Positions 6,884 through 31,315 of a stretch of 31,911 nucleotides of DNA are shown piece by piece. The number at the start of each line of letters is the position of its first letter. Positions within the stretch are counted from its first letter, which is position 1. A model generated the notes under the pieces. That model did no database searches, had not been told where the DNA came from, and saw nothing but the letters and a program-made list of their open reading frames with translations. The stretch comes from an uncultured Methanosarcinales archaeon (GTDB lineage Archaea; Nanobdellota; Nanobdellia; Woesearchaeales; ARS49), in NCBI GenBank assembly GCA_964445485.1, contig CAYUPS010000009.1:11579-43489 (forward strand), given 5' to 3'. The position numbers were made by a program, and so were the translations under genes.

Positions 6884-6887
6884 CCTT

Positions 6888-13188: not shown

Positions 13189-13235
13189 ACAACTTGCGCT
13201 CAGGCAGCACCGCGCACCCTAGAAAGGAATGTTCC

Positions 13236-13784: not shown

Positions 13785-13859
13785 CACGCAGTCACACAAG
13801 AGCGCCGCCGCGGCCTGCGCATGACAGCGCGGCGGCACTCACTCACCACAGGAGGCCCC

Positions 13860-14588
13860 ATGGGCAAGGAATTGCAGAAGGAAGTCGAGCTGCGCTACAC
13901 CGCGCTGCTCGAGCGTCTCGCCGCCGACGCCCTCAAAGGCATGGGCAAGGAAACGATGCGCTGGGCCAAGGACGGTATCGCCTCCGCCCTCGGCAAAGTC
14001 CTGAGCGCGCTCGGTATCACCGGGCTCTACAAGAACTTCGCACTGCTCAGGAGCATCAACACCATCGTCTTCGGCACTGCCGACAACCCGCAGGAGAACC
14101 CGCTCGGCGCCATCGGCATCCCCTTCACCTCACCAAAGGAGCTCGAGCGCAGGATGCGTGAGCTCGAGAAGGTCGTGCGCGAGCGCCTCAGCAAGTCCGA
14201 CACAGCAGTGCCGCCGAATGTCGAAGAAGGTCTCGTCGCGGCGCGCGGCAGGCTCATCGCCCTCAACCGCCGCCACGGCAACGTCGTCAAGAAGCTCACG
14301 ACCATCGCCGATGCGGCCGACATCGACGCCGTCAACGACGAGAGCATGATGGCTGCCATGCGCAAGGAGTACAAGAGCGCCGAGAACCACTACGCCTCCC
14401 TGCGCAATATCACCGGCGCCTTCCGAGACTACACCCTCGCCGTCATCTACCTGCTCGAGTGCGGCGACAAGAGCACCCGCTTGCTTGGCACCGCGGCCCA
14501 CGGCGCGCTGGACGTCGCATGGAAAGGCATCGATCCAGCGGCCGACGGCGTCGCCAAACGCATCAGCAAACGCGTCTTCGGCGAGTAA
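13860..14588 (+). CDS. hypothetical cytoplasmic protein (242 aa)
   Basis: CAGGAGG RBS before ATG 13860. Helical composition. Confidence 0.65.
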   Translation: MGKELQKEVELRYTALLERLAADALKGMGKETMRWAKDGIASALGKVLSALGITGLYKNFALLRSINTIVFGTADNPQENPLGAIGIPFTSPKELERRMRELEKVVRERLSKSDTAVPPNVEEGLVAARGRLIALNRRHGNVVKKLTTIADAADIDAVNDESMMAAMRKEYKSAENHYASLRNITGAFRDYTLAVIYLLECGDKSTRLLGTAAHGALDVAWKGIDPAADGVAKRISKRVFGE

Positions 14589-14617
14589 TCCGTTCCACCA
14601 TCTGTGAAAGGACACCT

Positions 14618-14974
14618 ATGAGCGCCGTTGAAAATGAAGTCCGACCACAAGGTGAAGTTGAACCTGACAACGCAGTATTCACCGAAGCAAACATCCTCTG
14701 GATGAGCGTCAAAGAATGGGCGGAAGCGACTGGGAAGGACCCGCGACAGTACGCGCTGGAAGGCATTATCAGCGCAAAGCATGAAGACATCAGATCCTGC
14801 ATCAGCAGCCTTGTGAAAAAGATAATAAACACAACCATTGACTGTCCGGAGGTAATCCTGCATCTCACAGTCATCAACTATCCCTCGGGGAGTCAATATG
14901 AACACTCCTGTGTCTCTCTCGCAGGCGTCGCCCTCATCCCCAAGAAGAAGGAGGATGCATTCAAGAACGACTAA
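14618..14974 (+). CDS. hypothetical protein (118 aa)
   Basis: GAAAGGA RBS before ATG 14618. The 3' part is locally AT-richer. Confidence 0.55.
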   Translation: MSAVENEVRPQGEVEPDNAVFTEANILWMSVKEWAEATGKDPRQYALEGIISAKHEDIRSCISSLVKKIINTTIDCPEVILHLTVINYPSGSQYEHSCVSLAGVALIPKKKEDAFKND

Positions 14975-14994
14975 CCCCGCGACAAGGAGGCGCC

Positions 14995-15621
14995 ATGAAA
15001 CGGAGCACCGTCGTGAAACTCGTGATCGCCATCAGCGTGGCGCTCGCCACCGTGGCCATCATCGACCTGCGGAGGAAGACGCCAGCGGAACCCGCGCTGC
15101 CGGCGCCCCCGCCGGAACAGACCGCACCGCAAGAGCCCCCTCGGAAGGAGACGCCGAAGCCAATCGACGACTTCGCGCCCTTCGAGACGCTTTTCAAGAA
15201 AGACTACTGGCCATTCCTGACCAAGAAGATCGTGCAGCTGCCCATGACGTACACCCGCGACAACTTGGGCGAAGAGGCCGAGCACGGCGGCATGGAAATG
15301 GACATCCGCGACGACCACATGCAGCGACAGTGGACAGTGGAATACAAATGCCACCTGTTCATATCAACCGGCCCGCTCGAAGTCCTCGAGACGCTCACCA
15401 TCAAGACTGAAGGAAAGACCCTCTCCATACTCCGAGTCGGCGACATGAACAGCGCGGACCTCATCACCGTCAACACACAACAGCTGGAGCTGATGCAGGA
15501 TCAGAACAAACCCCCCACCATCAAACGGAACGGCGGAACCGTATTCACCGCCGAAGAAGCGTCAAAACGCCTCACACAGTGCCGCGAACTGCTCGAGCGC
15601 GTCGCGACAAGCACGAAGTGA
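14995..15621 (+). CDS. membrane-anchored protein (N-terminal TM, Pro-rich linker, globular C-domain); possible partner of the downstream SPFH protein
   Basis: AAGGAGG RBS. TM VVKLVIAISVALATVAIIDL, then a P-rich linker. Sits immediately 5' of the SPFH gene, the usual position of NfeD-like partners. Confidence 0.65.
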   Translation: MKRSTVVKLVIAISVALATVAIIDLRRKTPAEPALPAPPPEQTAPQEPPRKETPKPIDDFAPFETLFKKDYWPFLTKKIVQLPMTYTRDNLGEEAEHGGMEMDIRDDHMQRQWTVEYKCHLFISTGPLEVLETLTIKTEGKTLSILRVGDMNSADLITVNTQQLELMQDQNKPPTIKRNGGTVFTAEEASKRLTQCRELLERVATSTK

Positions 15622-15702
15622 GCGACAGGCATCCGGGATTCTGCGCGTGCGCGCGGACCCTGACCTGCGCAAGCAGTAGACACATCAGAAGGAGGCTTAT
15701 TC

Positions 15703-16632
15703 ATGGAACTCACCACCATCCTGATGATCGCCGGCAGCGCAGTGGCGTTCATCTTCTTCCTCCGCGGCTTCCGTCAGGTCGATCAGACCGAGCGCGGCCT
15801 CATCGAGCGCTGGGGCAAATTCGTCGGCTTCGCCGAGCCCGGCCTGCACTGGATCCTGCCAGTCATGTACCGCATGCGGCGCGTGGATATCACTGAGAAG
15901 ATGGTCGCCTCCGGCACGCAGGACATCATCACCAAGGACAAGCTGAACGCCAGCGTCGACCTCGTCGTGTACTTCCAGGTGCAGAGCGATGAGGAATCCA
16001 TCAAGAAGAGCCAGTACAGCGTCTCCGACTATGAGACGCAGATCGTCAGCCTGGCCCGCACCACGGCGCGCAACATCATCGGCAAGCTGAGCTTCACCGA
16101 GACGAACTGCGAGCGCGAGAAGCTCAACACGCAGCTCGAGGAACATCTCAAGAAGGAAGTGCAGGCGTGGGGCCTGCGCATCGTGCGCGTCGAACTGCAG
16201 GAGATCGACCCGCCCGACATCGTGCAGAACGCGATGAATGAAGTTGTGACTAATGAGCAGAAGAAGCTCGCGGCGACCGACTTCGCGACCGCCAAGGAGA
16301 CCGAAGCGGACGGCGAGCGCAGAGCCGCTGTCAAGAAGGCGCAGGGCGAGGCCGAAGCGGTGCAGGTGCGCGCCAAGGCTGATGCTGAGGCCGTGACGCT
16401 CAAGGCCGAAGCGCATGCGAAGGCAATCGAGCTGGTCAACACCGCCGCCGAGAAGTACTTCAAGGGGAACGCGCAGACGCTCAAGCGCCTCGAATCCATG
16501 GTGGAAGCCACCAAGGCCAACACGAAGATCATCTTCACGAGTGACAATCGCACGCTCGAGACGCTGCTCGCCGCCGCGGCGGGAATCAAGGAAAGCACGC
16601 CGCAGGAGCCCGCCGCCAAACCGGCGACATAG
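15703..16632 (+). CDS. SPFH/band-7 (stomatin/HflKC-like) membrane protein
   Basis: GAAGGAGG RBS. N-terminal TM. SPFH core RGLIERWGKFVGFAEPGLHWILPVMYRMRRVDI ..., followed by an Ala/Glu/Lys-rich coiled-coil tail. Confidence 0.9.
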   Translation: MELTTILMIAGSAVAFIFFLRGFRQVDQTERGLIERWGKFVGFAEPGLHWILPVMYRMRRVDITEKMVASGTQDIITKDKLNASVDLVVYFQVQSDEESIKKSQYSVSDYETQIVSLARTTARNIIGKLSFTETNCEREKLNTQLEEHLKKEVQAWGLRIVRVELQEIDPPDIVQNAMNEVVTNEQKKLAATDFATAKETEADGERRAAVKKAQGEAEAVQVRAKADAEAVTLKAEAHAKAIELVNTAAEKYFKGNAQTLKRLESMVEATKANTKIIFTSDNRTLETLLAAAAGIKESTPQEPAAKPAT

Positions 16633-16639
16633 CATCCTC

Positions 16640-16669
16640 GCCGCCCCTCGTCCGCGTGAGAGGGGCGGC
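16640..16669 (+). terminator. possible attenuator/terminator hairpin (no U-tract)
   Basis: 10-bp perfect stem GCCGCCCCTC / GAGGGGCGGC with a 10-nt loop, directly after the SPFH stop. No T-run follows. Confidence 0.3.
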
Positions 16670-16706
16670 AAACACCCGCATCTCAACAATAGAAAGGAGA
16701 CAGCAC

Positions 16707-17087
16707 GTGAAACGCGGTTTTACCATCATCGAGCTGCTGATCGTGATCGCCATCATCGCGATTCTCGCAGCGATCGTCCTGCCCATGCTCGACAAGAGAC
16801 GGGAGCGGCAGCGCATGCTCAACAACACCGTCTCCCTGATCGAACTGCGCAACGATCTCGGCGAGTGGAGCATCACGAGCATGGACGTCGAAGGAGGCGA
16901 CAAGCATCTGATCACGCTCTCGCGCACAATCAACGCCACCGTCGAGACGAAGAGCGTGTACGTGAGCAAGGAGGCCTTTGAGCTGCTCTGGCCGCGCTGG
17001 GAGCACCATCGCAAGGTCAGCACACTTCTCCAGGACCTCCCTGCGCAAGTGGAGAGGGGCGCAGCGAACGCGGAAGAGGGGATTTAG
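16707..17087 (+). CDS. prepilin-type N-terminal cleavage/methylation domain protein (type IV pilin-like/pseudopilin)
   Basis: GTG 16707 after TAGAAAGGAGA. Sequence VKRG/FTIIELLIVIAIIAILAAIV is a class III signal peptide with Glu at +5. Confidence 0.8.
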   Translation: MKRGFTIIELLIVIAIIAILAAIVLPMLDKRRERQRMLNNTVSLIELRNDLGEWSITSMDVEGGDKHLITLSRTINATVETKSVYVSKEAFELLWPRWEHHRKVSTLLQDLPAQVERGAANAEEGI

Positions 17088-17159
17088 GCGGCGTAAGGAC
17101 GCGGCAGCCCATCCTGTAGAATGGGCGGCGAGAAACACTCATTCATCGCGAGGTGCATT

Positions 17160-18020
17160 ATGCGGGCATTCTGCCTCATCGCGGCATTGCTGGCGGCGAA
17201 CATCGTCGCTGCCGAAGACGAAGCGCTCAACGAAGACCTGCCGCAGGTCACGACGATCCGGCGCTTCATGCAGGACGGCCGGCAGCTGATGGAGCTCACG
17301 CTGCGCCAGGACGGCAAGGACGTGAGCATCTTCATCGACCTGGCCAAGACGCCCGAGGCCCAGCTGCTCCAGCCGGGCGACCGCATCACGGGAGAGTACA
17401 AGAAGGAGAACCGGACGCTCTGGATGACCGCGACGCACATCATCGGCGCGAACGGCCTGCCTATCACGATGGTCACGGAAGACCGCGCGCGGCGGATCAG
17501 GGCCATCGACGCGAGCAAGAACCCCATCGTCGTGACGCTCGATGACGGCACGGTCTACAAGATCGACGGCCTGCTGCATCCCTGGTACGTGCGGCTCAAG
17601 AAGGGGCAGGGCGTGTGCTTCGACTACGTGCAGCGGAGCGAGGACCGCTGGGCGCACGCCGCGACCATCCGGCTCTTCGCGCCGGGCGTCCCTGACACGC
17701 GTCTTGAGACGTGGTCCTTCGGCGTCGAGGACGAAGTCGAGACAGTCGTGTGGGAGAACCAGCACGTCTGCCAGGTAACGACCCGCGGCAAGCGGCGGTT
17801 CTGGATCGACGTGCGGGTCTATCCGGGCTGCCGGCACTTCGTGAGGGGATTCCGCCTGCCGTTCGGCGCCCTTATCTACCAGAACAGGCACTGGCAGCCG
17901 CAGGCATGGTGGGTCAAGCACCATCACCGCCACAGGCACCACATGCGCGATCATCACCGCGGCAAGGGCGATGGCAAGAAGCACCGCGGCGGCAAGCACA
18001 AGGGAGGCAAGAAGAAATAA
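17160..18020 (+). CDS. secreted protein with a C-terminal His/Lys/Gly-rich tail
   Basis: GAGGTG RBS before ATG 17160. Signal peptide MRAFCLIAALLAANIVAA. C-terminus HHHRHRHHMRDHHRGKGDGKKHRGGKHKGGKKK. Confidence 0.65.
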   Translation: MRAFCLIAALLAANIVAAEDEALNEDLPQVTTIRRFMQDGRQLMELTLRQDGKDVSIFIDLAKTPEAQLLQPGDRITGEYKKENRTLWMTATHIIGANGLPITMVTEDRARRIRAIDASKNPIVVTLDDGTVYKIDGLLHPWYVRLKKGQGVCFDYVQRSEDRWAHAATIRLFAPGVPDTRLETWSFGVEDEVETVVWENQHVCQVTTRGKRRFWIDVRVYPGCRHFVRGFRLPFGALIYQNRHWQPQAWWVKHHHRHRHHMRDHHRGKGDGKKHRGGKHKGGKKK

Positions 18021-18112
18021 GCACTGAGCGCCGCGGCTCCGCGTCAGCCACTCATCGTGAGATGGCGGCGGGGCCGCGGCAAAGCATGACACCTCATCTG
18101 AGGTAGACTCGC

Positions 18113-18502
18113 ATGACTCCGCAAGAGATGAAGGACAAGGCGGACGTGAACAAGTTGGGGAACAAAGTCATCACCCTCATCCTCCTCGCCAGCACCGGCA
18201 TTCTTCTCTGCCTCGCGTTGGTGGTCAAAACACACCTGGAAATGATTCCTCGGCCCAAAATCACCACGCTCGAAGAGCTCAAGACGGAATGGGCTGACTG
18301 GCAGTACGACGGCATGAACATGAAAGCGCATCTCGCCACTCATCGCCTCGTGCTGAAACGCGAGACTGCCGAGGGGACGCAGGAGCGGATCGTCATCATC
18401 GACCATGAGACGATGCTCCACCTGCAAAAGAAAGTCGACGCCACGCTCACCATGCGCAGCCTCCTCGAAGAAGCCCCTGCTGAAGAGCAGCCCTCGCCGT
18501 AA
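18113..18502 (+). CDS. membrane-anchored hypothetical protein (129 aa)
   Basis: Single TM VITLILLASTGILLCLALVV. Weak RBS GAGGTAG. Confidence 0.55.
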   Translation: MTPQEMKDKADVNKLGNKVITLILLASTGILLCLALVVKTHLEMIPRPKITTLEELKTEWADWQYDGMNMKAHLATHRLVLKRETAEGTQERIVIIDHETMLHLQKKVDATLTMRSLLEEAPAEEQPSP

Positions 18503-18524
18503 CACTCACTGCGAAAGGAATGCC

Positions 18525-18995
18525 ATGCCCGCACCGCACCAGAACTACAAGCCGCCATGGTGGGCGACACTGATGCTGCCGTACATCATCTGCGGCATCG
18601 CGGCCTGCGCCATCATCCCCGTGCTCCTCACCTTCAGCGTCAGCGCGGGGCGCGTCAGCGAAGAGACTGCAGGTAACATGATGCTCGCAGTCCTCGTCAT
18701 CATGGTGTCGCTGACCGTGCTCAGCATGCTCAGCATCCCCCTGCGGCTCATCCTGCGGCGCGCATGGGTCGCCAAGCAGCCAGCCATGACGCTCGACGAC
18801 CTCATCGACACCCATGAAGGCTGGGTGTTCATGCGGCCCGAACCACTGCTCGACAATGTCTTCGTCATCCGGCTCCAGAAGGAATGGCCGCAGGGCGAGA
18901 GCGTCGAGGTGCGCATCGACAAGGCAGCGTTCGTGCGCATCGACCGGTACTTCCGGCCGGAGCATCGGAGGCTCGGCACGGCGATACAGAAGTGA
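18525..18995 (+). CDS. membrane protein (2 TM) with a C-terminal soluble domain
   Basis: GAAAGGAA RBS before ATG 18525. Two hydrophobic helices. Confidence 0.6.
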   Translation: MPAPHQNYKPPWWATLMLPYIICGIAACAIIPVLLTFSVSAGRVSEETAGNMMLAVLVIMVSLTVLSMLSIPLRLILRRAWVAKQPAMTLDDLIDTHEGWVFMRPEPLLDNVFVIRLQKEWPQGESVEVRIDKAAFVRIDRYFRPEHRRLGTAIQK

Positions 18996-19021
18996 CCCGC
19001 GACACCGGAGGAGGCGCGCAA

Positions 19022-19168
19022 ATGGTTGCGATCATTCTGTTCGTTCTCGCGTTCACCGTGTACATCGCAGGGTGCGTGCTGGTGCGCCGTCGGAGAAAAC
19101 CTCCCGACGCCCGCCAGTTCCGCACGATGGACGAAGTGTACGAGGAGATGAACAGCCCCAGCGACTGA
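19022..19168 (+). CDS. small single-TM protein (48 aa), tentative
   Basis: GGAGGAGG RBS before ATG 19022. Sequence MVAIILFVLAFTVYIAGCVLV. Confidence 0.35.
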   Translation: MVAIILFVLAFTVYIAGCVLVRRRRKPPDARQFRTMDEVYEEMNSPSD

Positions 19169-19340
19169 ACGCATGAGAGGAGGCGAGATGGCGCGAGAAC
19201 CGCCACACATCCCGCAGTTATCCCGCACGTGATTGCCAACCGCGTTGTCAATACTCTTCGGACGGCGCCGGGGCTGCCACCCGTCATCCTGACGGGGGCT
19301 TCGGCGCCGAACCAGCAGTACAATCCCAGGAGACGCACAC

Positions 19341-21395
19341 ATGTCTCGGAATGAATTCGACCGCAGTGGAGGCGGGCAGGGCTTCTTCGAGAAGAATCGG
19401 GGGAAGCTCATCCTCTTCGCCGTCATCGGCATCCTGCTCCTGATCATCAGCTTCGCCACCATCGGCTCCGTTGATCCGGCCCACGGGGAGTTCTACGTGT
19501 GGCGCAACATCATGGGCAAGGAGCTCCCGCCCGGCCAGATCATCGCGGACGAGGGCCAGGCGGGCTTCACGCGCAAGATGCACACGCAGGGCTGGGAGTG
19601 GTACTTCTTCAAGAACATCACGAGGAAGCTCGAAGGACCCTTCACCGTCACCGAGGTCGGCCCCGGCCAGATATGCACGCTGGTCCAGCACACCGGCAAG
19701 CCGCTGCCCGAAGGGATGATTCTCGCGCCCGTGAACCGCAATGAGGACGGCACGCCGAAGCTCAACGAGATGGGCCTGCCCGAATCGGACTACATGGGCA
19801 TGCTGGACGAGATGCTCGGCCCGGGGCAGTACCGCGTGCATCCGAAGATGTACACGCCGCAGCTGTTCGACTGGGTGGATGTGCCGTCGAATCAGATCTG
19901 CATCCTCAAGCAGAACGACGGCATGTCTCTTCCCGAAGGTATGCTGCTCGCGCCTGTCGAGCGCACTGCGGATGGGACGCCGAAGCTCAACGAGATGGGC
20001 ATGCCCTACAGCAAGTACCGCGGCATGCTGGATGAATACCTCACGCCCGGCCAGTACCGCATCCATCCGGGCAAGTACAAATCGCTGCTGGTGAACATGA
20101 GCGAGGTCAAAGCGGGAGAGGTGGGCGTTCTCGTGCGGCGCGCAGGCCTGCCGCTGCCCGACGGCGAATTCATCGCACCCATCGACCGCAATGAGGACGG
20201 ATCCGCGAAGCTGCGCGACAGCATCCCGCAGTCGCGCTACAAGGGCATCCTGGCAGAAGTGCTCAAGCCGGGCCAGTACCGCGTCCATCCGGGCATCTAC
20301 GAGTTCATCACGGAGAAAGCGGTGCGGGTCATGCCTGGCGAGGTCGGCGTCGTGACCGCCCTCACCGGCAAGTCCAAACCGGAGACGCAGCTGCTCGCCA
20401 AGGAGGGCGAGCGCGGCGTGCAGGAGAAAGTTCTCCCTGCCGGCACGTACTACCTCAACCCTCACATGGTCAAGGTGGACAATTTCTCCATCCAGTCCCA
20501 CCTGACCGAATTCTTGCAGGACGACAAAGCGGAGACCTTCGACGAGATCGACTTCCCGTCGAACGAAGGGTTCATGCTCAAACTCGATATCGCTGTCGAG
20601 TGGAGGGGCGACGAGAACAGGATCCCTGAGCTGTTCGTGCGGCTCGGCAACATCAAGGACCTGCAGCACAAGGTCGTCGTGCCCAACACCAGGTCGATCG
20701 CGCGGACGGAAGGCAGCAAGTACGGCGCGAAGCAGTTCATCCAAGGCGCGACGCGCGAGCAGTTCGAGAAGGCGTTCTTCGATGAACTGAAGGAGGTGTG
20801 CGCGGAGAAGGGCGTGCAGATCATGCGGGGCGTGGTGCGCAAGCTCACCGTCCCCGAGCAGATCTCGGAGCCCATCCGCATGGCGGAGATCGCCCGCCAG
20901 GAAGTGCTGCGCAACAAGGAGGAAGTGGAACGGGCAAAGTCTGCTGCGCTCAAGATGGAGGAAGAGACGCGCATCGAGCAGCGCAAACAGCAGATCGACG
21001 CTGAGACGCAGAAGATGGTCGCGGACACCAATGCTCAACAGCGCCTCTCCGTCGCCAAGGTCGAGCTGGACACCGCAAAGCAGGAGGCAGAGGCGACCAA
21101 GACGCGCGGCGATGCCGAAGCGCATGTCATCTTCGCCAAGAAGAAGGCGGAGGCGGACGGCGTGAGGGTCATGACCGAGGCATTCGGCGGGGGCGAGAGC
21201 CTGGCGCGGTACGAGATGGCGAAGGCCGTGTCGGCCAACACGACGTTCGTGTGGCTGCCGTCGAACGAAGGGACGTTCTGGGGCGGCGGTGGTACTGAAG
21301 GGCTGCTGGGTGACATGACCAAGTGGCTCGTCAAGGACGCCCGCAAGAGCAATACTGACGGCACGGAGAAGCCTGTGCCGCTCAAGAGCCGCTAA
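19341..21395 (+). CDS. membrane-anchored SPFH/band-7 domain protein preceded by three (about 3.5) tandem 75-aa repeats
   Basis: CAGGAGA RBS. TM LILFAVIGILLLIISFATIG. Three repeats at aa 101-325 (consensus V-x-PG-x-I/V ... LPEGM-LAPV-R-EDGTPKLNEMG-P-S-Y-GMLDE-L-PGQYRVHP-x-Y). SPFH core from aa 330 (MPGEVGVVTALTGKS...LPAGTYYLNPHMVKV). Ala/Glu/Lys-rich coiled-coil tail. Confidence 0.85.
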   Translation: MSRNEFDRSGGGQGFFEKNRGKLILFAVIGILLLIISFATIGSVDPAHGEFYVWRNIMGKELPPGQIIADEGQAGFTRKMHTQGWEWYFFKNITRKLEGPFTVTEVGPGQICTLVQHTGKPLPEGMILAPVNRNEDGTPKLNEMGLPESDYMGMLDEMLGPGQYRVHPKMYTPQLFDWVDVPSNQICILKQNDGMSLPEGMLLAPVERTADGTPKLNEMGMPYSKYRGMLDEYLTPGQYRIHPGKYKSLLVNMSEVKAGEVGVLVRRAGLPLPDGEFIAPIDRNEDGSAKLRDSIPQSRYKGILAEVLKPGQYRVHPGIYEFITEKAVRVMPGEVGVVTALTGKSKPETQLLAKEGERGVQEKVLPAGTYYLNPHMVKVDNFSIQSHLTEFLQDDKAETFDEIDFPSNEGFMLKLDIAVEWRGDENRIPELFVRLGNIKDLQHKVVVPNTRSIARTEGSKYGAKQFIQGATREQFEKAFFDELKEVCAEKGVQIMRGVVRKLTVPEQISEPIRMAEIARQEVLRNKEEVERAKSAALKMEEETRIEQRKQQIDAETQKMVADTNAQQRLSVAKVELDTAKQEAEATKTRGDAEAHVIFAKKKAEADGVRVMTEAFGGGESLARYEMAKAVSANTTFVWLPSNEGTFWGGGGTEGLLGDMTKWLVKDARKSNTDGTEKPVPLKSR
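19641..20315 (+). repeat. 3 x 225-bp in-frame tandem repeat inside the SPFH-repeat gene
   Basis: Period 225 nt, e.g. CCGAAGCTCAACGAGATGGGC at 19755 and 19980 and GCGAAGCTG at about 20205. Copies are diverged at the DNA level. Confidence 0.8.
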
Positions 21396-21549
21396 GAGCC
21401 AATCAGGCCTGAGGAGACAATACCATGGCCACTCTGATGGCCCGCAACCGCGATCCTCCCGCCCCCGAATGCTGCGGGGGCGGAGTGATGATCCTGATGT
21501 GCATAGTGCCGTGTCGTACGAGGATGAACCGCGAACAAGGAGGTGTCTC

Positions 21550-22119
21550 ATGAAGTTCACTGCGTTGCTGCTGTGCTGCGTGGCGATGGTCTTCGCGCCG
21601 ATGGCGTTCTGCGCCGACGCGCTGCCGACCATGCCCGAGGAGGAGCTGCTGCAGAAGTTCGGCGACCACACCATCGCGTGCCCGATCCGCTCGGAGAAGA
21701 ACGAGTGGTACGCGCTGACGCTCCAGAAGGGCGAGACGGGCATGAGCATGTTCGTCACGCAGGAGATGTACGGGCGCGTCGTGGTCGGCATGGCGCACTC
21801 GGCGCCGACACTGGGCGAGCTCCTGCCGGAGGAGGCGAAGGCGGCGGAGAAGGCGCTCGAGAGCGCGCACGGCCCTCTCGAGAGGGTGCGTGCGTTCATG
21901 CACGTCGAAACGATGAAGCTGAAGGTCCTGGGCACGCATCCGAGCGGCAAGGAGTGGTGCGCCGTGCTGGCGTTCATCCATCCGAATGGCGTGGGGTTCA
22001 TCGAGAACCCGCTCACGCAGGAGGAAGCGGAGACGCTCGGGAAGGCGCTCGAGAGCAAGCGCGTGACGCTCACGGCGGCCCTCAAGGCGCAGAAGGCGCT
22101 GGTGGAGAAGAAGGAATAG
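21550..22119 (+). CDS. secreted protein with an internal duplication (189 aa)
   Basis: AAGGAGGTG RBS before ATG 21550. Signal peptide MKFTALLLCCVAMVFAPMAFCA. Internal halves: KNEWYALTL...LPEEAKAAEKALES versus GKEWCAVLA...LTQEEAETLGKALES. Confidence 0.7.
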   Translation: MKFTALLLCCVAMVFAPMAFCADALPTMPEEELLQKFGDHTIACPIRSEKNEWYALTLQKGETGMSMFVTQEMYGRVVVGMAHSAPTLGELLPEEAKAAEKALESAHGPLERVRAFMHVETMKLKVLGTHPSGKEWCAVLAFIHPNGVGFIENPLTQEEAETLGKALESKRVTLTAALKAQKALVEKKE

Positions 22120-22567: not shown

Positions 22568-22592
22568 TCGTCCTGCGTCTGTTGCAGGACAA

Positions 22593-22623
22593 GCCGTCTT
22601 CCTTCGGGAGGGCGGCTTTTTTT
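22593..22623 (+). terminator. rho-independent terminator with UUCG tetraloop
   Basis: Stem GCCGTCTTCC / GGAGGGCGGC (10 bp, two G-U wobbles), TTCG loop, then T7. It ends the + strand block; an AT-rich spacer follows before the convergent vapC. Confidence 0.75.
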
Positions 22624-22653
22624 ATGCAGAATTATCTTCTATATTAAAATAAA

Positions 22654-23037
22654 TCAGTACCGCTGCGTCTTCAAACCGCGCACCGTCAAGAGCGCCTCGT
22701 TGCGCGTGAGCACCTGCTCATTGTGGTGCAGGGCGAACCCCGCGATCATCGCATCGTCCCACGAGAGCATCCTGCTCGCCGCGCGCGCCTCGGCAGCGAC
22801 TGCGGCAGCGCGCCGCGCGCACTCCGCATCGAGCGGCAGCGTCGTGAGCGCGTCGAGCAATTCATGCACGAGCGCGCGCTTGTGCGCAGGGAGCGAATGC
22901 GTCGCGGCCTGGATCTGGAACACCGACGGGGCGGTCGCCCGCACAGGCGTGCCGGCGCGCTCTATCTCCTGCGCCATCATGACAGCATGGCTCTCGCCGC
23001 GCAAAAGGTCGATGAGGAACTGCGTATCGAGTATCAT
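22654..23037 (-). CDS. vapC: PIN-domain toxin VapC
   Basis: N-terminus MILDTQFLIDLLRG typical of VapC. Acidic PIN residues. 4-nt ATGA overlap with the upstream antitoxin gene. Confidence 0.85.
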   Translation of the reverse strand: MILDTQFLIDLLRGESHAVMMAQEIERAGTPVRATAPSVFQIQAATHSLPAHKRALVHELLDALTTLPLDAECARRAAAVAAEARAASRMLSWDDAMIAGFALHHNEQVLTRNEALLTVRGLKTQRY

Positions 23038-23267
23038 AAGTGGTAGAGGTCTCCGCGCAGGGAGTGCATCTTCTCCTTCTTGCGCATCGTCTCGGCGACA
23101 TGCTCGAGGTCCTGGGCCTCCATGGCGGAGAGGATGCCGGCGAATTCGGTGATGCGGGATGCGCCGGTGAGCCGCATGATCGCCTGGCTGAACGATTCAT
23201 TCTGCCGCTTGAGGCCCGAGAGGCGGTCGTAGGCCTCTGTGGTGATAGTGATGGTCTTTGTCGCCAT
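23034..23267 (-). CDS. vapB: antitoxin VapB (COG1753/PF02697-type, ribbon-helix-helix-like)
   Basis: MATKTITITTEAYDRLSGLKRQNESFSQAIMRL matches the putative-antitoxin family found upstream of PIN toxins. Start chosen at the internal ATG (track ORF 23034..23288). No clear SD, so the start is uncertain. Confidence 0.75.
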   Translation of the reverse strand: MATKTITITTEAYDRLSGLKRQNESFSQAIMRLTGASRITEFAGILSAMEAQDLEHVAETMRKKEKMHSLRGDLYHL

Positions 23268-23351
23268 AGTAAATACACATACATACACTTAGGTATAAGT
23301 CATTTTAGAACCACTACGGAGTGCTCAACATGCCAATATATAGTGAAAGAC
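23268..23351 (-). promoter_or_regulatory. AT-rich putative vapBC promoter/operator region
   Basis: GC drops sharply here. Contains the (CATA)-like direct repeat ACACATACATACAC and A/T tracts between the dtdA stop and the vapB start. Confidence 0.3.
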
Positions 23352-24158
23352 CTACTTGAGCTTCACGACCTTGATCCCTCGCGCGTCCAGCAGCGCGAGG
23401 ATCGGCGCGCGCTGCTCCGCAGAGCCGCACGACTTATCAAAGAGCGCAACATCTACCGGCTCGGCGCTGCGCTCGAGCGCCTGCGCCACGACCTCAGCCG
23501 ACAATCCTTTCTCCACAGCATACTTGGAGAACATGTGCGAGAACGCGTACTCTCCCGACAACGCCCTGCGCGTGAAGCGGTCCGGATAATGCCCGCCGCC
23601 AAAACCCAGCGCCACCGGCAGCTTCGCAGGAGCGGAGCGCATGAAACGCAGCACCGCCTGCGCGATGGCAGCGCCGCGCGACGCATCCGACCATTGCGCC
23701 TCGGTCGAACCGAGCTCCAGGAAGAGAAGCGGCGTCCTCACCGATGTCGGTCCGTGATGCGTCGCCTCGTACGTGACCTGCACCCCATCAGACGCGACCT
23801 CCTTGAGGCAGCGCAGCATGTGCGCGGCGAACGACGGATGCGCCACACCCAACGCCTCGGGATCGCCCGAACCCCACACCTCAGCGGTAGGATTGCCCAC
23901 AAAATGCACTGAATACGACACGACAGACTTCTCCGAGCGGTGGCGGTAGCAGAACACGAAACACTGCGCATCGAAGAGCGCATCAAGGGACGTCGCCTTC
24001 ACCAACTCCTCATCATGCCAGTACAGGTAATCCTTGCCGGCGCAGAAGAGGTTGTCCGCGACGCGCGAGAACGCGCCCGTTCGGAGCAGCGCATCGCCGA
24101 TAGTCGCCGACGCCATCTCCTTGCGCGTCACGACGAACACCACGCGGGCCTTGTGCAT
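23352..24158 (-). CDS. dtdA: D-aminoacyl-tRNA deacylase, archaeal/plant type (DTD2)
   Basis: Conserved DTD2 blocks VTYEATHHGPT, LGFGGGHYP and AFSHMFSKYA align with Pyrococcus DtdA (CYEATHHGPT, LGIGGGHYAP, FGHILPKYA). Length is about 268 aa. Confidence 0.8.
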   Translation of the reverse strand: MHKARVVFVVTRKEMASATIGDALLRTGAFSRVADNLFCAGKDYLYWHDEELVKATSLDALFDAQCFVFCYRHRSEKSVVSYSVHFVGNPTAEVWGSGDPEALGVAHPSFAAHMLRCLKEVASDGVQVTYEATHHGPTSVRTPLLFLELGSTEAQWSDASRGAAIAQAVLRFMRSAPAKLPVALGFGGGHYPDRFTRRALSGEYAFSHMFSKYAVEKGLSAEVVAQALERSAEPVDVALFDKSCGSAEQRAPILALLDARGIKVVKLK

Positions 24159-24226
24159 GCAGCGGCCAACGCCCAGTCACAATAAAAATGTTTGTGAGGG
24201 AATGTTTATAACCCGCCCGCAGCTCA

Positions 24227-24739
24227 ATGCGTCAGATGATGCTCACGCGCAGCGAGATCCTCAAGGAGATCACCGCAGGACGCATCCGCATCGTCCCCTT
24301 CTCTGACGCGAACCTCGGCCCGGCAAGCTATGACGTGACGCTCGGCGACGAATTCCGCATCATCACCGCGAAGAAGCCCATCCTGCTCACCGATGACGCG
24401 GACGTCACGGCGCACAGCAAGAAGATCACCGCAGAGCAATACACTCTCAAGCCCGGCGAGAGCGTGCTCGGCATCACGCGCGAGCGCATCACGCTCCCCA
24501 GCGACATCTGCGCCGAGGTGCAGGGCCGCTCGCGCTTCGCCCGCTTCGGCCTCGCCGTCCACATCACAGCCTCATTCATCCAGCCGGGCGTGTCCAACAG
24601 GACAGTCCTTGAGATCTGCAACACGGGACCCGCGACGCTCATCCTCACTCCAGGCACGCGCATCGCGCAGATCATCTTCGCCCGCTGCGAAGGCACTGCG
24701 ACATACGCAGGCGCGTTCCAATCGCAGGAGGCGCTCTGA
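24227..24739 (+). CDS. dcd: dCTP deaminase (Dcd family, possibly bifunctional dCTP deaminase/dUTPase)
   Basis: dUTPase-fold Dcd motifs: VTLGDEF, GESVLGITRERITLP, EVQGRSRFARFGL, FIQPGVSNRTVLEICNTGP. Start could be at one of the nearby in-frame ATGs. Confidence 0.8.
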   Translation: MRQMMLTRSEILKEITAGRIRIVPFSDANLGPASYDVTLGDEFRIITAKKPILLTDDADVTAHSKKITAEQYTLKPGESVLGITRERITLPSDICAEVQGRSRFARFGLAVHITASFIQPGVSNRTVLEICNTGPATLILTPGTRIAQIIFARCEGTATYAGAFQSQEAL

Positions 24740-26467: not shown

Positions 26468-29380
26468 TCACACGAGCAGGTCTTCGGCTGCCCGCAGCAC
26501 GAACGCGGCAAGCTCCGGCGGCCACGTCTTGAACACGTGCTGCCGATCGCCCACGAGCCGCTCGAGCACGTCCGTGCGCACATCCGCCCGGTCGCCCTCG
26601 ATGAGTTTCGCCACCTCATCCTTGACATAGCCGTCGATCCCATGGAGCTCGGCGAGCTGGACGCGCAGGAACACGCGCTGCTCCTCGTCCTGCCGCCGCG
26701 CCTCGTCCGCCTGCCTCTCCCAGAACGCCTTGTAGTCGAACACGCGGCGCTCGGCCCCCTCGGGCGATCCGGCATCGCTGACGCGGCGCTCCTTGGGCAG
26801 TTTCAGCTTGGCCAGGACCATCTCGTGCATGCGGCGCAGGAACTCATGCTTGTCCTCGATGCGCAGCACGTCCATGTAGCCCTGCAGCGCGAGATTGAAC
26901 GCGAAGGGCGAAGGGATCGTCGTCTCGAGCTCGATGAGCTGTACCGTGCCCGCCTCGAGGCCCGCCAGAACGCGCTCAGCATTGCGGATGTCCATGAGGT
27001 CCTCGAGGCATTCGCGCCGCGCCTCCTTGAGGACGGAGAAGTCCGGATTGATGCGCTTGAGCGCCGAGCAGAGGATCTGCGCGCTCACCTGCTGCGTGCC
27101 AACGCGCTTGGAATGGCCCATGAAGTTGCGCAGGATCATCAGGGCGCGCGTCGCGCAGTGGCGGAAGCGGCGCTTGAAGACCTCCGAGCGCTCGATGGCG
27201 ACGCGCATGACGCGCTCGAGCTTGTCAGACTTGAGCAGGCGCAGCGCGTCCGCGGCAGGGATGCGTTTGGGCGCGACAAGGTAGAAGCCGTTGTCGTTAA
27301 TGCCTATCTCGACATCCTTGTGCCATGTGCGGCTGATGGCGAACGCGATGGCCCGCGAGAGGCAGTCGTTGACGCGGCGGCCGAAGAGCGCGTGGAACAC
27401 CATCTTGGTGTCCCTCTCATCCTCGTAGTACTCGAGGAGTATCTGGCGGTCGTTGGGGATCCTGCCGCAGAAGTCGAACTGCTCGCGGAAGTATGCGTAG
27501 ATGGCGCGCGCCGCGTTCTCATCGACGCACAGATGCGAATGGATGAATGAGAGCACCTCCTGCTCGGGCTGCTTGGCGCTGAGGCGCTCGAGCATCATGC
27601 GGCGGAAGCGGCCGATGTCGCTCGCCAGATCGAAGGAGAGCGGGAGCATCTCGCTCACCCAGTGCGGGACTGTCGGCGGCCTGTTGCTGGAGGCGGAGAC
27701 CTGCGCGACGGTGCCGCGCGAGAACTTGAACACGTACGTGTTGCCGCCGAGCACGAACACATCGCCCGGCTTGAGCCGCTCGAGGAACCCTTCGTCGATC
27801 GTGCCGATGGGCTCGGTGCCGACCTTCACCGTCACGAAGGACTCGTCGGGGATGGTGCCGATGTTGCTCATGTAGATGGGCCGCGAGAGCCTGCCGCGCT
27901 TGCCCAGCCTGCCGCCCTCGCGCCAGATGCGGGCGTAGATGTGGCGGTCTTCCAAATCAGTGAACGAGCCGCTGAGGTATTCGAGGATCTCGCTGAACTC
28001 CTCGCGCTTGAGATCGGCGTAGCAGAAGCTCCGGCGCATAAGGTCGAAGAGCTCCTTCTCGTCCCACTCCTGGGCCATGGCGGCGCCGACGACCTGCTGG
28101 GCGAGCACATCGAGGCAGTTGGTGGGGATGTGCAGGCGGTCGATGCGCTTCTCGCGGGCGGCCTTGACGAGGCATGCGCATTCGACGAGGTCGTCGCGGT
28201 CCATGACGATGATGCGCGCCTTGACGGTCTGGTGCAGGCGGTGGCCTGCCCTGCCCGCGCGCTGCAGGAAGCGCGCGACGCTCTTGGGGCTGCCGAGGCA
28301 GATGACGAGGTCGATGTAGCCGATGTCGATGCCGAGCTCCAGCGAGGTGGACGATGCGCAGACCTTGAGCTCGCCCTCGCGCAGGCGCCGCTCGATCTCG
28401 TGCCGCATCTCCTTGGAGAGCGAGCCGTGGTGGGCGCCGATGTTGCCTTCGTATCTCGAGGGCCAGCGGTTCTTGAGGTGGTCGACGACGCGCTCGGTGG
28501 CGGCGCGCGTGTTGGTGAAGATGAGGGTGGTGCGGTGCTCCTGCACGAGCCTGTCGATGAGCTCGTACATCTTGCCGTGCAGCAGCGCATGGGGCGTGTC
28601 GATGAGGTTGTCGACGGGCGAGATGACCTGGAGGTCGAGCTGCTTGAGGAACTGGACGTCGATGACTTTGCAGGGCCGGCCTGCGCCGACGAGGAAGCGC
28701 GCGACGTCCTGGATGGGGGCGACGGTGGCGGAGAGGCCGACGCGGCAGGTGTGCGCGCTCATGTGCTGCAGGCGCTCGAGGGAGATGGAGAGGTGGACGC
28801 CGCGCTTGTTCTCGGCGAGGGCGTGGATCTCGTCGATGATGACCCATTCGACGCTGCGCAGGTGGTCCTTGAATTTGGTGGATGCGAGGACGATGGCGAG
28901 CGATTCGGGCGTGGTGATGAGGATGTGCGGGGGTTTGGCGAGCATCGCGGCTTTCTCTTTCGGGGTGGTGTCGCCGGTGCGCACACCCACGCGGATGCCG
29001 AGATTTCTGCCTGCGATCTTCTCGATCTCGGCGAGCGGCTCGACGAGGTTCTTGTGGATGTCGTTGTTGAGGGCCTTGAGGGGGCTGATGTAGACGCAGT
29101 GGACTTTGTCCTCGAGGATTCCTTTCTCGGCGCTGTCGACGAGCTCGTTGAGGATGGCGAGGAAGCCGGTGAGGGTCTTGGTCGCGCCGGTGGGCGCGCT
29201 GACGAGGATGTTCTCGCGCTGGTGGATGGGGATGACGCCGAAGCGCTGGGGGAGGCTGAAGTCTTTGAAGCGGGAGAAGAACCATTGCTTGACCGTGGGG
29301 TTGAGGATCCGGAGGAGGGCTTCCGCGGGGTGCGGCTCGTCGACGCGTTCGATGCCCGGGGGCCAGTTCTCGTCGGTCAT
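26468..29380 (-). CDS. lhr: Lhr-family ATP-dependent DNA helicase (superfamily 2, DExH)
   Basis: Motif I SAPTGATKT, motif II VIIDEIHALAE, later motifs TATLxN and QRAGRAGH. 970 aa with a long C-terminal Lhr-specific region. GAGGAC RBS. AT-rich promoter region upstream. Confidence 0.9.
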   Translation of the reverse strand: MTDENWPPGIERVDEPHPAEALLRILNPTVKQWFFSRFKDFSLPQRFGVIPIHQRENILVSAPTGATKTLTGFLAILNELVDSAEKGILEDKVHCVYISPLKALNNDIHKNLVEPLAEIEKIAGRNLGIRVGVRTGDTTPKEKAAMLAKPPHILITTPESLAIVLASTKFKDHLRSVEWVIIDEIHALAENKRGVHLSISLERLQHMSAHTCRVGLSATVAPIQDVARFLVGAGRPCKVIDVQFLKQLDLQVISPVDNLIDTPHALLHGKMYELIDRLVQEHRTTLIFTNTRAATERVVDHLKNRWPSRYEGNIGAHHGSLSKEMRHEIERRLREGELKVCASSTSLELGIDIGYIDLVICLGSPKSVARFLQRAGRAGHRLHQTVKARIIVMDRDDLVECACLVKAAREKRIDRLHIPTNCLDVLAQQVVGAAMAQEWDEKELFDLMRRSFCYADLKREEFSEILEYLSGSFTDLEDRHIYARIWREGGRLGKRGRLSRPIYMSNIGTIPDESFVTVKVGTEPIGTIDEGFLERLKPGDVFVLGGNTYVFKFSRGTVAQVSASSNRPPTVPHWVSEMLPLSFDLASDIGRFRRMMLERLSAKQPEQEVLSFIHSHLCVDENAARAIYAYFREQFDFCGRIPNDRQILLEYYEDERDTKMVFHALFGRRVNDCLSRAIAFAISRTWHKDVEIGINDNGFYLVAPKRIPAADALRLLKSDKLERVMRVAIERSEVFKRRFRHCATRALMILRNFMGHSKRVGTQQVSAQILCSALKRINPDFSVLKEARRECLEDLMDIRNAERVLAGLEAGTVQLIELETTIPSPFAFNLALQGYMDVLRIEDKHEFLRRMHEMVLAKLKLPKERRVSDAGSPEGAERRVFDYKAFWERQADEARRQDEEQRVFLRVQLAELHGIDGYVKDEVAKLIEGDRADVRTDVLERLVGDRQHVFKTWPPELAAFVLRAAEDLLV

Positions 29381-29938: not shown

Positions 29939-31135
29939 ATGTCATTCGACGCATTCAACCTACCAGAGCCAGTCATGCGCGCCGTGCGCGACATGCACTA
30001 CACGCAGCCAACGCCCATCCAAGAAAAAGCCATCCCGCTCATCCTCGAAGGCAAAGACGTCGTCGGCCAATCCGAGACGGGATCGGGCAAGACCGCCGCA
30101 TTCGGCCTCCCGCTCCTCGGCAGACTCCAGCCGCAGGGCACGCAGATGCTCGTCCTCACGCCCACGCGCGAGCTGTGCATGCAGGTCAAGCAATCGCTCA
30201 CCCACTTCGCCCGCCACCTGCGCATCAACGTCGCCGCAGTCTACGGCGGCGTCGGCATGGGCCCGCAGATCCACGCGCTCCGCACCGCCCACATCATCGT
30301 CGCATGCCCCGGACGCCTGCTCGACCACTGCGAGCGCGGCACGGCAAACCTCTCCCGCATCAAGTACCTCATCCTCGACGAAGCCGACCGCATGTTCGAC
30401 ATGGGCTTCATCCGCGACATCGAACGCATCCTCCGCGCCCTGCCCAAAGAGCGCCAGACCCTCCTCTTCAGCGCCACCATGCCCCGCGAAGTCAAAGCGC
30501 TGGTCCAGCGCTACATGCGCAACCCCCATTTCGTCGAGACCACAGTCCACGTCGACAAAGACAAACTCCACGAATACTACTACGAAGTGCGGCAGGACGA
30601 CAAGTTCTCGCTCCTCGTGCACCTGCTCAAGCACGAGACGCCCGGCACAGCGCTGGTCTTCTGCGGCACGCGCCGCATCGTCGACAAGATCACGCGCAAC
30701 CTCCGGCGCCTCGAGATCAAGGCGCTCGCCATCCACGGCGGCCTCTCCCAGAGCAAGCGCGACATGGCGATCGACATGCTGCACCGCGGCAAGACACCCG
30801 TGCTCGTCGCGACAGACATCGCAGCGCGCGGCCTCCACATCAAGAGCATCACGCACGTCTACAACTACGACCTGCCGAACGTCGCCGAAGACTACACGCA
30901 CCGCATCGGCCGCACAGCGCGCGCCGGCGCAGAAGGCGACGCCATCACCATTTTGTCTGACCGCGACCGCCCGCTCATGCGCCCCATCCTGCGGCTCGGC
31001 CACAACATCATCCGCAGGGAACTGCCGCGCTTCGAGCGCGTCGTCCCCCCGCAAGGCCAGCAAGAGACGCCCGAGCGCGAAGGCCACAAGCACCGCGGCT
31101 TCCGCCACAAAGGCAAGAAGCAGTGGCGACGCTAA
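29939..31135 (+). CDS. DEAD-box ATP-dependent RNA helicase
   Basis: GGAAGGAAA RBS. Q motif F-x16-TQPTPIQ, motif I GQSETGSGKT, Ia PTRELC, II DEAD, III SAT, VI HRIGRTARAG. Basic C-terminal tail. Confidence 0.92.
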   Translation: MSFDAFNLPEPVMRAVRDMHYTQPTPIQEKAIPLILEGKDVVGQSETGSGKTAAFGLPLLGRLQPQGTQMLVLTPTRELCMQVKQSLTHFARHLRINVAAVYGGVGMGPQIHALRTAHIIVACPGRLLDHCERGTANLSRIKYLILDEADRMFDMGFIRDIERILRALPKERQTLLFSATMPREVKALVQRYMRNPHFVETTVHVDKDKLHEYYYEVRQDDKFSLLVHLLKHETPGTALVFCGTRRIVDKITRNLRRLEIKALAIHGGLSQSKRDMAIDMLHRGKTPVLVATDIAARGLHIKSITHVYNYDLPNVAEDYTHRIGRTARAGAEGDAITILSDRDRPLMRPILRLGHNIIRRELPRFERVVPPQGQQETPEREGHKHRGFRHKGKKQWRR

Positions 31136-31143
31136 AGCAAGAA

Positions 31144-31226
31144 CGCCATCGGCAGGATTTGAACCTGCAATCCCGTAAGGGATCGGTTTTCAAGACCGAC
31201 GCACTACCAGGTTATGCGACGATGGC
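31144..31226 (-). tRNA. tRNA-Ser (anticodon UGA), class II with long variable arm; CCA not encoded
   Basis: Reverse complement reads GCCATCG-TC-GCATAACCTGGTAGTGC-G-TCGGT-CTTGAAA-ACCGA-TCCCTTACGGGATTGC-AGGTTCAAATCCTGC-CGATGGC-G. It has a 7-bp acceptor stem, D-arm, anticodon loop CU-UGA-AA, a 16-nt variable arm, T-arm GGTTCAAATCC and discriminator G. Confidence 0.9.
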
Positions 31227-31315
31227 AGATATCCCCTCTCCATTCACAGGTGTCTTTTAAATCTTGCCCGGCGACAAAATTTAAATACTCCGAGGGCTCC
31301 CGTCGTCGGAGAACG

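Follow-up and report, generated by a model that had tools for sequence, protein, structure and literature searches.

The deacylase gene in the 31,911-nucleotide stretch of DNA that we analysed (hereafter the window) codes for what is, judged by its sequence, a real, though divergent, D-aminoacyl-tRNA deacylase of the archaeal type (DTD2). Most probably it is an ordinary gene native to a little-sampled archaeon, and not an archaeal gene that a bacterium has captured. The original prediction had treated this gene, together with a neighbouring vapBC pair, as a 1.5-kb archaeal islet in a bacterial context. The assignment to DTD2 and the mixture of bacterial and archaeal features in the window both hold up, but the islet does not, as archaeal affinity extends over at least 22.65-31.3 kb and includes an Lhr-type helicase, a DEAD-box RNA helicase and a tRNA-Ser (Table 1). 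The contig is therefore probably archaeal, at least in the neighbourhood of DTD2.

Table 1. Coordinates of the features discussed in the text (window positions).
Feature	Position	Strand	Remarks
Bacterial-like block	961..22119	+	all genes on +; GGAGG SD sites before nearly all
ALDH	4921-6462	+	in bacterial-like block
Prepilin	16656-17087	+	TIGR02532, 33.9 bits against a cut-off of 16.3
12-pair hairpin, then T7, then AT-rich tract	22591..22659		putative termination region
vapC, PIN-domain toxin	22654..23037	-	127 aa; PF01850
vapB antitoxin	23034..23267	-	77 aa from ATG 23267 (likely start); PF02697
DTD2-type D-aminoacyl-tRNA deacylase	23352..24158	-	268 aa, divergent; PF04414
TATA-like box TTTTTATT	24181..24188	-	22 nt upstream of DTD2 ATG; putative leaderless-mRNA promoter
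TATA-like box TTTATAA of divergent dcd	24205..24211	+	24-27 nt before ATG 24236 or 24239
dCTP deaminase, dcd	24239..24739	+	ORF opens at 24227; divergent from DTD2
Lhr-type helicase	26468..29380	-	970 aa; NF010338, 1134 bits, above cut-off of 849
DEAD-box RNA helicase	29939..31135	+	398 aa with the start of the NCBI-sourced entry P0073
tRNA-Ser(UGA)	31143..31227	-	TTTAAAA box upstream
TTTAAAA box of tRNA-Ser	31255-31261		28 nt before tRNA 5' end

Several lines of evidence confirm that the predicted deacylase is DTD2. A profile search with the translated ORF gave a full-length match to the tRNA_deacylase family PF04414 (E=3.7e-55, 187.1 bits against a cut-off of 33.6) covering profile positions 4-204 of 205. 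When aligned with homologues (n=22), the window protein retains 15/15 invariant columns, with the motifs RHRS, GN, EATHHGP and GFGGGHY and with residues that include H73, H85, G88, E131, T133, H134, H135, P137, G187, H190 and Y191. Significant sequence matches were also obtained to two solved structures of archaeal DTD2, 2gfq (Pyrococcus horikoshii PH0006; E=1.4e-32) and 1yqe (Archaeoglobus AF0625), with which the window protein shares a single-domain form of ~270 aa and all of the family-invariant His, Glu and Gly motifs. However, the window protein is very divergent from these archaeal DTD2/DtdA proteins and falls under every NCBIfam equivalog cut-off, the best model being NF003072 (cut-off 272 bits), on which it scores 187 bits. 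In a set of 5.8 billion proteins, the nearest relative has 36% identity to it, and it forms a singleton cluster. In a neighbour-joining tree, which is the phylogenetic check that the original prediction had proposed, the protein is sister to a group of one Pacearchaeota protein (L002) and two further relatives (P0002 and P0003) in 169/200 bootstraps. The members of this small subgroup share a VKLK motif at the end, and the contig that carries P0003 also codes for Ribosomal_L15e. Moreover, when 185,579 species genomes were scanned, the best 80 DTD2 loci were all archaeal (80/80); the genome of the window itself is not among these 80.

DTD2 has been reported to be exclusive to Archaea and Streptophyta (PMC7857688), and the archaeal and plant enzymes are known to deacylate D-aminoacyl-tRNA as well as N-alkylated D-aminoacyl-tRNA (PMC7857688, PMC10942605). 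Going by its family, the window protein would hydrolyse D-aminoacyl-tRNAs and aldehyde-modified D-aminoacyl-tRNAs, thereby returning free tRNA to translation. The ALDH that had been mentioned in this connection, with the remark that it may be coincidental, is indeed present in the window, but 17 kb separates it from DTD2, it belongs to the bacterial-like block, and no ALDH is seen near DTD2 in the other loci, so we rejected a functional link as unsupported.

The three co-oriented minus-strand ORFs of the original prediction are present, with DTD2 followed by vapB and vapC. Specifically, the ORF at 23034-23288 matches PF02697 (VAPB_antitox; E=4.8e-15) and, under the cut-off of that model, NF010249 (PRK13696; E=1.9e-14), while the downstream gene matches the PIN family PF01850 (E=3e-14). 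As in type II VapBC systems, a small antitoxin gene lies upstream of a PIN toxin gene and overlaps it by 4 nt, here as ATGA. The pair differs from known systems with a PIN toxin and a PF02697-type antitoxin in that the toxin has only weak matches to NF047959 VapC and the other NCBIfam VapC models. The acidic residues D4 and D93/D94 are visible in the VapC sequence as candidates for two of the four catalytic positions of the PIN domain. A conserved association of DTD2 with vapBC was considered and rejected, as 0/86 other loci have a VapB or VapC relative beside DTD2 (E<1e-5). In our reading, vapBC would form a separate two-gene toxin-antitoxin operon downstream of DTD2, driven from an AT-rich promoter region of its own, and would neighbour DTD2 by coincidence.

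The divergent dcd gene matches PF22769 (E=2.6e-44) and TIGR02274 (121.9 bits, above the cut-off of 92.8), its N-terminus MLTRSEIL agreeing with the start listed in Table 1. Archaeal affinity continues well beyond DTD2. The closest relative of the Lhr-type helicase (60% identity) adjoins genes for the split archaeal RNA polymerase (RpoB', RpoA' and RpoA'') together with a short NusA and S12, and another relative (50% identity) is flanked by aIF6. DTD2 and Lhr are adjacent in three other archaeal loci and lie within ~4 kb of each other in two more, a proximity that recurs across several archaeal phyla. Regarding the DEAD-box helicase, all named matches among the best 120 listed are from DPANN archaea, and relatives with 65-72% identity adjoin genes for aEF-1beta, S15 with an S13_N domain, aIF2-gamma, ZPR1, ATP-dependent DNA ligase and Hel308. 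For DTD2, Lhr and the DEAD-box helicase alike, the closest relatives are thus found on contigs that carry archaeal hallmark genes, and every placeable gene from 22.6 kb to the window end is, as judged from such relatives, archaeal in affinity. An exact-match metagenome scan with a 32-nt stretch of the tRNA-Ser returned no matches. We also considered A57 in the T-loop as an archaeal tRNA marker and rejected it, as most tRNAs of the fetched archaeal loci have G57.

The signals for gene expression change at the same place. From 22.6 kb to the window end, the first genes lack SD sites and have TATA-like boxes instead, which end 22-28 nt before DTD2, dcd, an unnamed ORF (start 25916), Lhr and tRNA-Ser, five units in all. 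These A/T-rich octamers, known from sequence and spacing alone, resemble the TTTAWAWA of archaeal BRE/TATA promoters of leaderless mRNAs. Archaeal contigs with orthologous genes have the same TATA-box spacing, plus GGAGG sites on internal genes, and the box of the tRNA-Ser with its spacing equals that of the tRNA promoters in three archaeal loci. DTD2 would thus be transcribed as a leaderless mRNA, divergently from dcd. The original prediction had also taken AT-rich spacers as the borders of the islet. These spacers are real: of the five 30-mers with the lowest GC in the window, three fall there (22630-22659, GC 0.13; 24181-24210, 0.23; and 23266-23295, 0.27). They are not unique to the 1.5-kb block, however, since similar ones occur at 29387-29416 (GC 0.20, upstream of Lhr), 14810-14839, 29457-29486 and 31255-31284. 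Their positions match promoters and terminators, and archaeal relatives have the same layout. The hairpin-T7 site near 22.6 kb is the strongest terminator-like site in 12000-31911, and we infer that it belongs to a termination region common to the convergent genes 22148-22567 (+) and vapC (-). By position and motif, then, the AT-rich spacers are putative promoters and terminators, not island borders, and the three at the block would correspond to the DTD2/dcd promoters, the vapBC promoter and the shared T-rich terminator.

The left part of the window has a quite different character. The claim that the gene signals of the window are bacterial is correct for about 1-22.6 kb, where SD sites, a lipobox and a prepilin are found, but not to the right of it. 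The left block contains a lipobox protein, the ALDH, an ABC transporter fused to DUF1854, an FdxA-like ferredoxin, two SPFH proteins and the prepilin. The prepilin has a canonical bacterial leader (KRG followed by FTIIELLIVIAIIAILAA) and weakly matches a Verrucomicrobia cassette protein. The 684-aa SPFH protein has its nearest relative (58% identity) on a contig that is bacterial and carries an rpsO-pnp operon. The ABC-DUF1854 protein has no relative above 39% identity in our homologue search, its distant matches are of mixed origin, and no domain-diagnostic genes were found around its DUF1854-bearing relatives. No TATA-like box scoring at least 7/8 occurs within 60 nt of any gene start in the left block. 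The prepilin, the lipobox, the FdxA-like ferredoxin, the bacterial SPFH relative and this lack of TATA-like boxes were counted against an archaeal reading of the window.

Universal markers (rRNA, ribosomal proteins, RNA polymerase) are absent from the 31.9-kb window, and because of this the call of its domain is indirect. We consider that the window probably represents an archaeal, DPANN-like genome with a native DTD2 and a neighbouring bacterial-like accessory block. Specifically, it would come from one genome, that of a poorly sampled archaeon, unusually rich in GC and allied to DPANN (Woesearchaeota/Pacearchaeota) lineages, and DTD2 would be one of its native, vertically inherited housekeeping genes. 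The block with the housekeeping genes and the tRNA is taken to be the native one. The bacterial-looking features would belong to the adjoining block of at least 22 kb, whose surface, transport and redox accessory genes of bacterial affinity are probably old acquisitions from bacteria that have adapted to the composition of the host over time. Many DPANN genes are known to have been acquired from Bacteria (PMC8407392).

The composition of the window is consistent with long residence of both halves in one genome. Their GC is 0.62-0.63 with a shared GC3, their codon fit is 0.454 (left) and 0.495 (right), and their RSCU values correlate at 0.944. The left-right correlation of TETRA z-scores is 0.77, above the 0.32-0.67 of all 27 high-GC control loci and under the 0.83-0.87 of the within-left control. 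The compositionally closest contig, L089, whose DEAD-box gene has 69% identity to that of the window, correlates about equally with both halves (0.748 and 0.744), and no domain-diagnostic gene or RNA was found on it. The closest relatives have 50-58% GC as compared to 62% in the window, a value that is unusual for DPANN, and a halophilic (acidic) proteome is not seen. The GC content and the shortfall of the left-right TETRA correlation relative to the within-left control were likewise counted against the archaeal reading.

An alternative that we regard as unlikely is a PVC-like bacterial host that stably keeps an archaeal block of at least 9 kb (vapBC, a working DTD2, dcd, an archaeal-type Lhr, the DEAD-box gene and tRNA-Ser under an archaeal-style promoter), acquired from a DPANN-like archaeon and since adjusted to the composition of the host, which would make this a rare bacterial DTD2. 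The prepilin leader passing TIGR02532, the Verrucomicrobia match, the bacterial SPFH relative, the strong GGAGG sites before almost every gene of the left block, the hairpin-T7 terminator at the junction and the uniform composition all favour such a host. However, the supposed island consists of housekeeping genes and an intact tRNA, which is atypical cargo. Integrase and transposase families are absent from the scanned window ORFs, and no tRNA-derived direct repeat was found near 22.6 kb, which led us to reject integration of an island at tRNA-Ser. Furthermore, over a long residence in a bacterium the fixed-spacing TATA boxes of the five units should have decayed, but they are intact and match those of archaeal relatives, and SD sites, so heavily used in the left block, are lacking from the first genes of the right block. 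A sigma-70 promoter scan of 12000-31911 gave only 2 matches as compared to 3.2 expected, with no intergenic sigma-70-like promoters in 12-31.9 kb.

About equally unlikely is a chimeric contig, in which an assembly or binning artefact would have joined bacterial DNA (1-22.6 kb) to archaeal DNA (22.6-31.9 kb) at an AT-rich low-complexity stretch, with DTD2 simply native to the archaeal part. This would explain the sharp switch in gene affinity and expression signals at ~22.6 kb as well as the TETRA correlation under that within the left half. In addition, the bacterial contig with the SPFH relative (L168) and an archaeal contig with a DEAD-box relative (L085) are both from the ENA sample ERZ27247320; such organisms therefore do co-occur. 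Against a chimera, the halves are alike in GC, GC3, codon fit and RSCU, their TETRA correlation exceeds that of every high-GC control, L089 fits both of them equally well, and no repeat that could mislead an assembler is seen at the junction.

With regard to the 1.5-kb block itself, the composition check of the original prediction did not set it apart. GC3 of its genes is 0.80-0.85 as compared to 0.76-0.92 in the flanks, and the codon-usage fit of the three genes (0.28, 0.45 and 0.58) is within ~1.1 sd of the window mean (0.47, sd 0.17). DTD2 and vapC do favour G3 over C3 (C3/(C3+G3) of ~0.4) as compared to 0.65-0.71 in dcd, Lhr and the DEAD-box gene, a difference that was also counted against the archaeal reading; this mild preference is common to the left-block genes 961-2238 and 21469-22119. 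That this block alone is foreign and was inserted into a bacterial region is thus very improbable. Its orientation opposite to that of the left block, its AT-rich flanks and the G-ending codons favoured in DTD2 and vapC do speak for such an insertion. Against it, the Lhr, DEAD-box and tRNA genes over 24.2-31.3 kb are also archaeal in affinity, which contradicts this reading, GC3 and codon fit are in the window range, two left-block genes share the codon preference, TATA-like boxes are present in the spacers at the distance expected of promoters, and no repeats or integrase were found. As for what had been observed at the outset, the ORFs, DTD2, the ALDH and the AT-rich spacers are all confirmed, while neither the uniqueness of the spacers nor the window-wide extent of the bacterial signals is.

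A bacterial capture of DTD2, if true, would have provided a bona fide bacterial DTD2 and challenged the reported restriction of this family to Archaea and Streptophyta. The evidence points instead to a DTD2 that is ordinary, albeit very divergent, and that sits where one would expect it, among archaeal genes, and the capture claim therefore loses most of its interest. What the contig does present, under the reading that we favour of a DPANN-like archaeal genome with a native DTD2, is a sharp inter-domain mosaic, in which a block of archaeal housekeeping genes borders on at least 22 kb of surface and transport genes of bacterial type, the two having a common nucleotide signature. Unless the contig is chimeric, this mosaic would represent a large and old transfer from bacteria to archaea in a GC-rich, DPANN-like lineage that has almost no sequenced relatives.

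Three ORFs of the DTD2 region lie on the minus strand in the same orientation and code for DTD2, VapB and VapC. That the first of these is a DTD2-type deacylase, as the original prediction stated, is confirmed by its full-length PF04414 match, by retention of 15 of 15 invariant columns in an alignment with 21 homologues and by matches to both solved archaeal DTD2 structures, 2gfq and 1yqe. The protein reaches none of the NCBIfam equivalog cut-offs and forms a cluster of its own in a set of 5.8 billion clustered proteins, where the next relative is 36% identical; it is a divergent representative of a known family, found in the domain where that family is expected. With one genome scanned for each of 185,579 species, at least 594 DTD2 relatives came up, the best 80 of which are all archaeal and led by a Pacearchaeota MAG. 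The proposed check for nesting within archaeal sequences, made by neighbour joining on 89 DTD2 sequences, placed the window protein with this Pacearchaeota sequence and two other DTD2 sequences, P0002 and P0003 (169 of 200 bootstraps); ribosomal protein L15e is encoded on the P0003 contig. DTD2 is probably an ordinary, vertically inherited archaeal gene, which agrees with its reported distribution in Archaea and Streptophyta (PMC7857688, PMC10942605).

Features of the window and distances from TATA-like boxes to start sites
Feature	Position	Strand	Details	Distance from box
ABC exporter with C-terminal DUF1854	7886-10726	+	resembles cyanophycin-associated ABC family, 564 bits, below cut-off of 880	
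Type IV pilin/pseudopilin leader, canonical bacterial	16656-17087	+	KRG/FTIIELLIVIAIIAILAA (also KRG/FTIIELLIVIAIIAILAAIVLP); passes PF07963 and TIGR02532	
SPFH protein, 684 aa	19341-21395	+	relative 58% identical	
VapC, PIN-domain	22654-23037	-	downstream of DTD2	
VapB antitoxin	ORF 23034-23288, likely start ATG 23267	-	PF02697; downstream of DTD2	
DTD2-type D-aminoacyl-tRNA deacylase, 268 aa	23352-24158	-	full-length PF04414, E=3.7e-55, 187 bits against cut-off of 33.6	22 nt to ATG
dcd (dCTP deaminase gene)			box at 24205-24211; N-terminus MLTRSEIL	24-27 nt to internal ATG 24236 or 24239
ORF with ATG 25916				23 nt to ATG
Lhr helicase	26468-29380		NF010338, 1134 bits	23 nt to ATG
DEAD-box helicase	29939-31135			
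tRNA-Ser				28 nt to 5' end

Every placeable gene between 22.65 kb and the right end of the window has archaeal affinity; since universal marker genes are absent from the window, the assignment to a domain is indirect. For the DEAD-box helicase, all named matches among the best 120 listed are from DPANN (Woesearchaeota at 68%, Nanoarchaeia, Aenigmarchaeota and Naiadarchaeales). Most contigs with its 65-72% identical relatives also carry archaeal/eukaryotic-type genes (aEF-1beta, S15 with an S13_N domain, aIF2-gamma, ZPR1, ATP-dependent DNA ligase, XPD and Hel308 with archaeal domain 4), the exception being contig L089, which has no domain-diagnostic gene. The closest metagenomic relative of Lhr (60% identity) adjoins RpoB', split RpoA'/RpoA'', a 140-aa NusA and S12, and aIF6 adjoins a 50% identical Lhr relative. 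DTD2 and Lhr-type helicase genes are recurrently close in Micrarchaeota, Marsarchaeota, Undinarchaeota and Hecatellales loci as well as in the window, where 2.3 kb separates them; elsewhere, the two are immediate neighbours in three archaeal loci (L049, L071, L015) and lie within ~4 kb in two more (L013, L043). We know of no functional link between them.

In this right-hand block, each unit is preceded at a fixed spacing by an A/T-rich TATA-like octamer. Archaeal contigs with DEAD-box relatives have a like layout, with a TTTATAA or TTTAAAA box followed after ~20-27 nt by an ATG or a tRNA, and with GGAGG on internal operon genes. As read from the sequence, the box spacing appears to fit archaeal TATA-directed, leaderless transcription and not a bacterial -10 box. 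For dcd, divergent from DTD2 with an ORF that opens at 24227, the box and the MLTRSEIL terminus suggest a leaderless start at either internal ATG, and ORF 25116-25934, called with a TTG start, probably begins at ATG 25916. The AT-rich spacers of the original prediction do exist: among the five 30-mers of lowest GC in the window, three flank the DTD2/vapBC genes. Similar spacers occur at 29387-29416 (upstream of Lhr), 29457-29486, 31255-31284 (upstream of the tRNA) and 14810-14839. The spacer at 22617-22659, between convergent genes, is best read as a putative terminator region because it has a hairpin, a T7 run and T-rich tracts on both strands. Given the promoter-spaced boxes and terminator features, the three spacers resemble normal regulatory stretches between genes rather than the island borders they had been taken for.

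The vapB and vapC genes overlap at ATGA. Their position beside DTD2 is incidental since the pairing is absent from the 86 other loci examined, and a link floated between DTD2 and the ALDH gene was dropped, as the latter is 17 kb away and judged unrelated. The 1.5-kb block is also not foreign in composition. Specifically, the suggested comparison with the flanks revealed no departure in GC3 (0.80-0.85 versus 0.76-0.92 in other genes) or codon-usage fit (DTD2 0.28, vapC 0.45 and vapB 0.58; window mean 0.47, sd 0.17). DTD2 and vapC prefer G-ending to C-ending codons, in contrast to dcd, Lhr and the DEAD-box gene, but G-ending codons are likewise favoured in two left-block genes.

The bacterial context claimed for the DTD2 gene holds for the left ~1-22.6 kb and fails for its own neighbourhood. 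Left-block genes are all on the plus strand, with GGAGG at SD spacing before nearly every one, and include a lipobox protein, an FdxA-like ferredoxin, an HflK-like SPFH protein, ALDH and an ABC transporter fused to DUF1854. No relative of this fusion protein above 39% identity was found among 5.8 billion proteins. On the contig of the 58% SPFH relative, a gene for an 88-aa S15 precedes that for PNPase, which is how rpsO-pnp is arranged in bacteria. The HflK-like gene (15703-16632, 309 aa, plus strand) and the larger SPFH/Band-7 gene flank a cluster of small secreted/membrane proteins, prepilin included, that lack a family match. No motif resembling the prepilin leader was found in 86 loci checked, mostly archaeal; this canonical bacterial leader shares its contig with informational genes of archaeal affinity.

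The window forms an inter-domain mosaic whose sharp boundary lies near 22.6 kb. At ~22570-22660 both gene affinity and expression signals switch, from bacterial-affinity, SD-led genes to archaeal-affinity genes with TATA-like boxes; GC, codon usage and tetranucleotide signature are the same on both sides. The archaeal block would be the native part of the genome, because housekeeping genes and a tRNA make it up, because five units keep archaeal promoter architecture although composition has fully equilibrated, and because the left genes are of the accessory surface, transport and redox type that DPANN archaea reportedly acquire from Bacteria (PMC8407392). Operon-internal SD-led translation signals are present in archaeal relatives too. 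The first two of these points also count against the reading in which a bacterium hosts an ancient block of archaeal genes at least 9 kb long, which we consider unlikely.

A chimeric contig is about as unlikely. The left-right tetranucleotide z-score correlation of 0.77 is slightly under the within-left control (0.83-0.87), but it exceeds all 27 high-GC control loci (0.32-0.67), and the halves share GC, codon fit (0.454 left, 0.495 right) and RSCU (r=0.944). In addition, L089, with a 69% identical DEAD-box gene, correlates at 0.75 with each half. This composition argues for a single genome but is not proof. L089 (Logan SRR22808074, 14 kb) is alone among the contigs compared in coming close to the window in tetranucleotide signature; the T-arm of its tRNA-Leu is identical to that of the window tRNA-Ser (GCAGGTTCAAATCCTGC), and the T-loop of its tRNA-Thr (GGGCGCACATCCC) is atypical. 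One metagenome sample, ENA ERZ27247320, contains both L085 (archaeal, with a DEAD-box relative) and L168 (bacterial, with an SPFH relative), and thus relatives of both halves co-occur in one environment. Finally, that DTD2 and vapBC form a 1.5-kb horizontally acquired islet, as originally proposed, is very improbable given the archaeal affinity up to the window end, the regulatory look of the spacers and the unremarkable composition. What stands out on this contig is its mosaic structure, more than the DTD2 finding as first stated.
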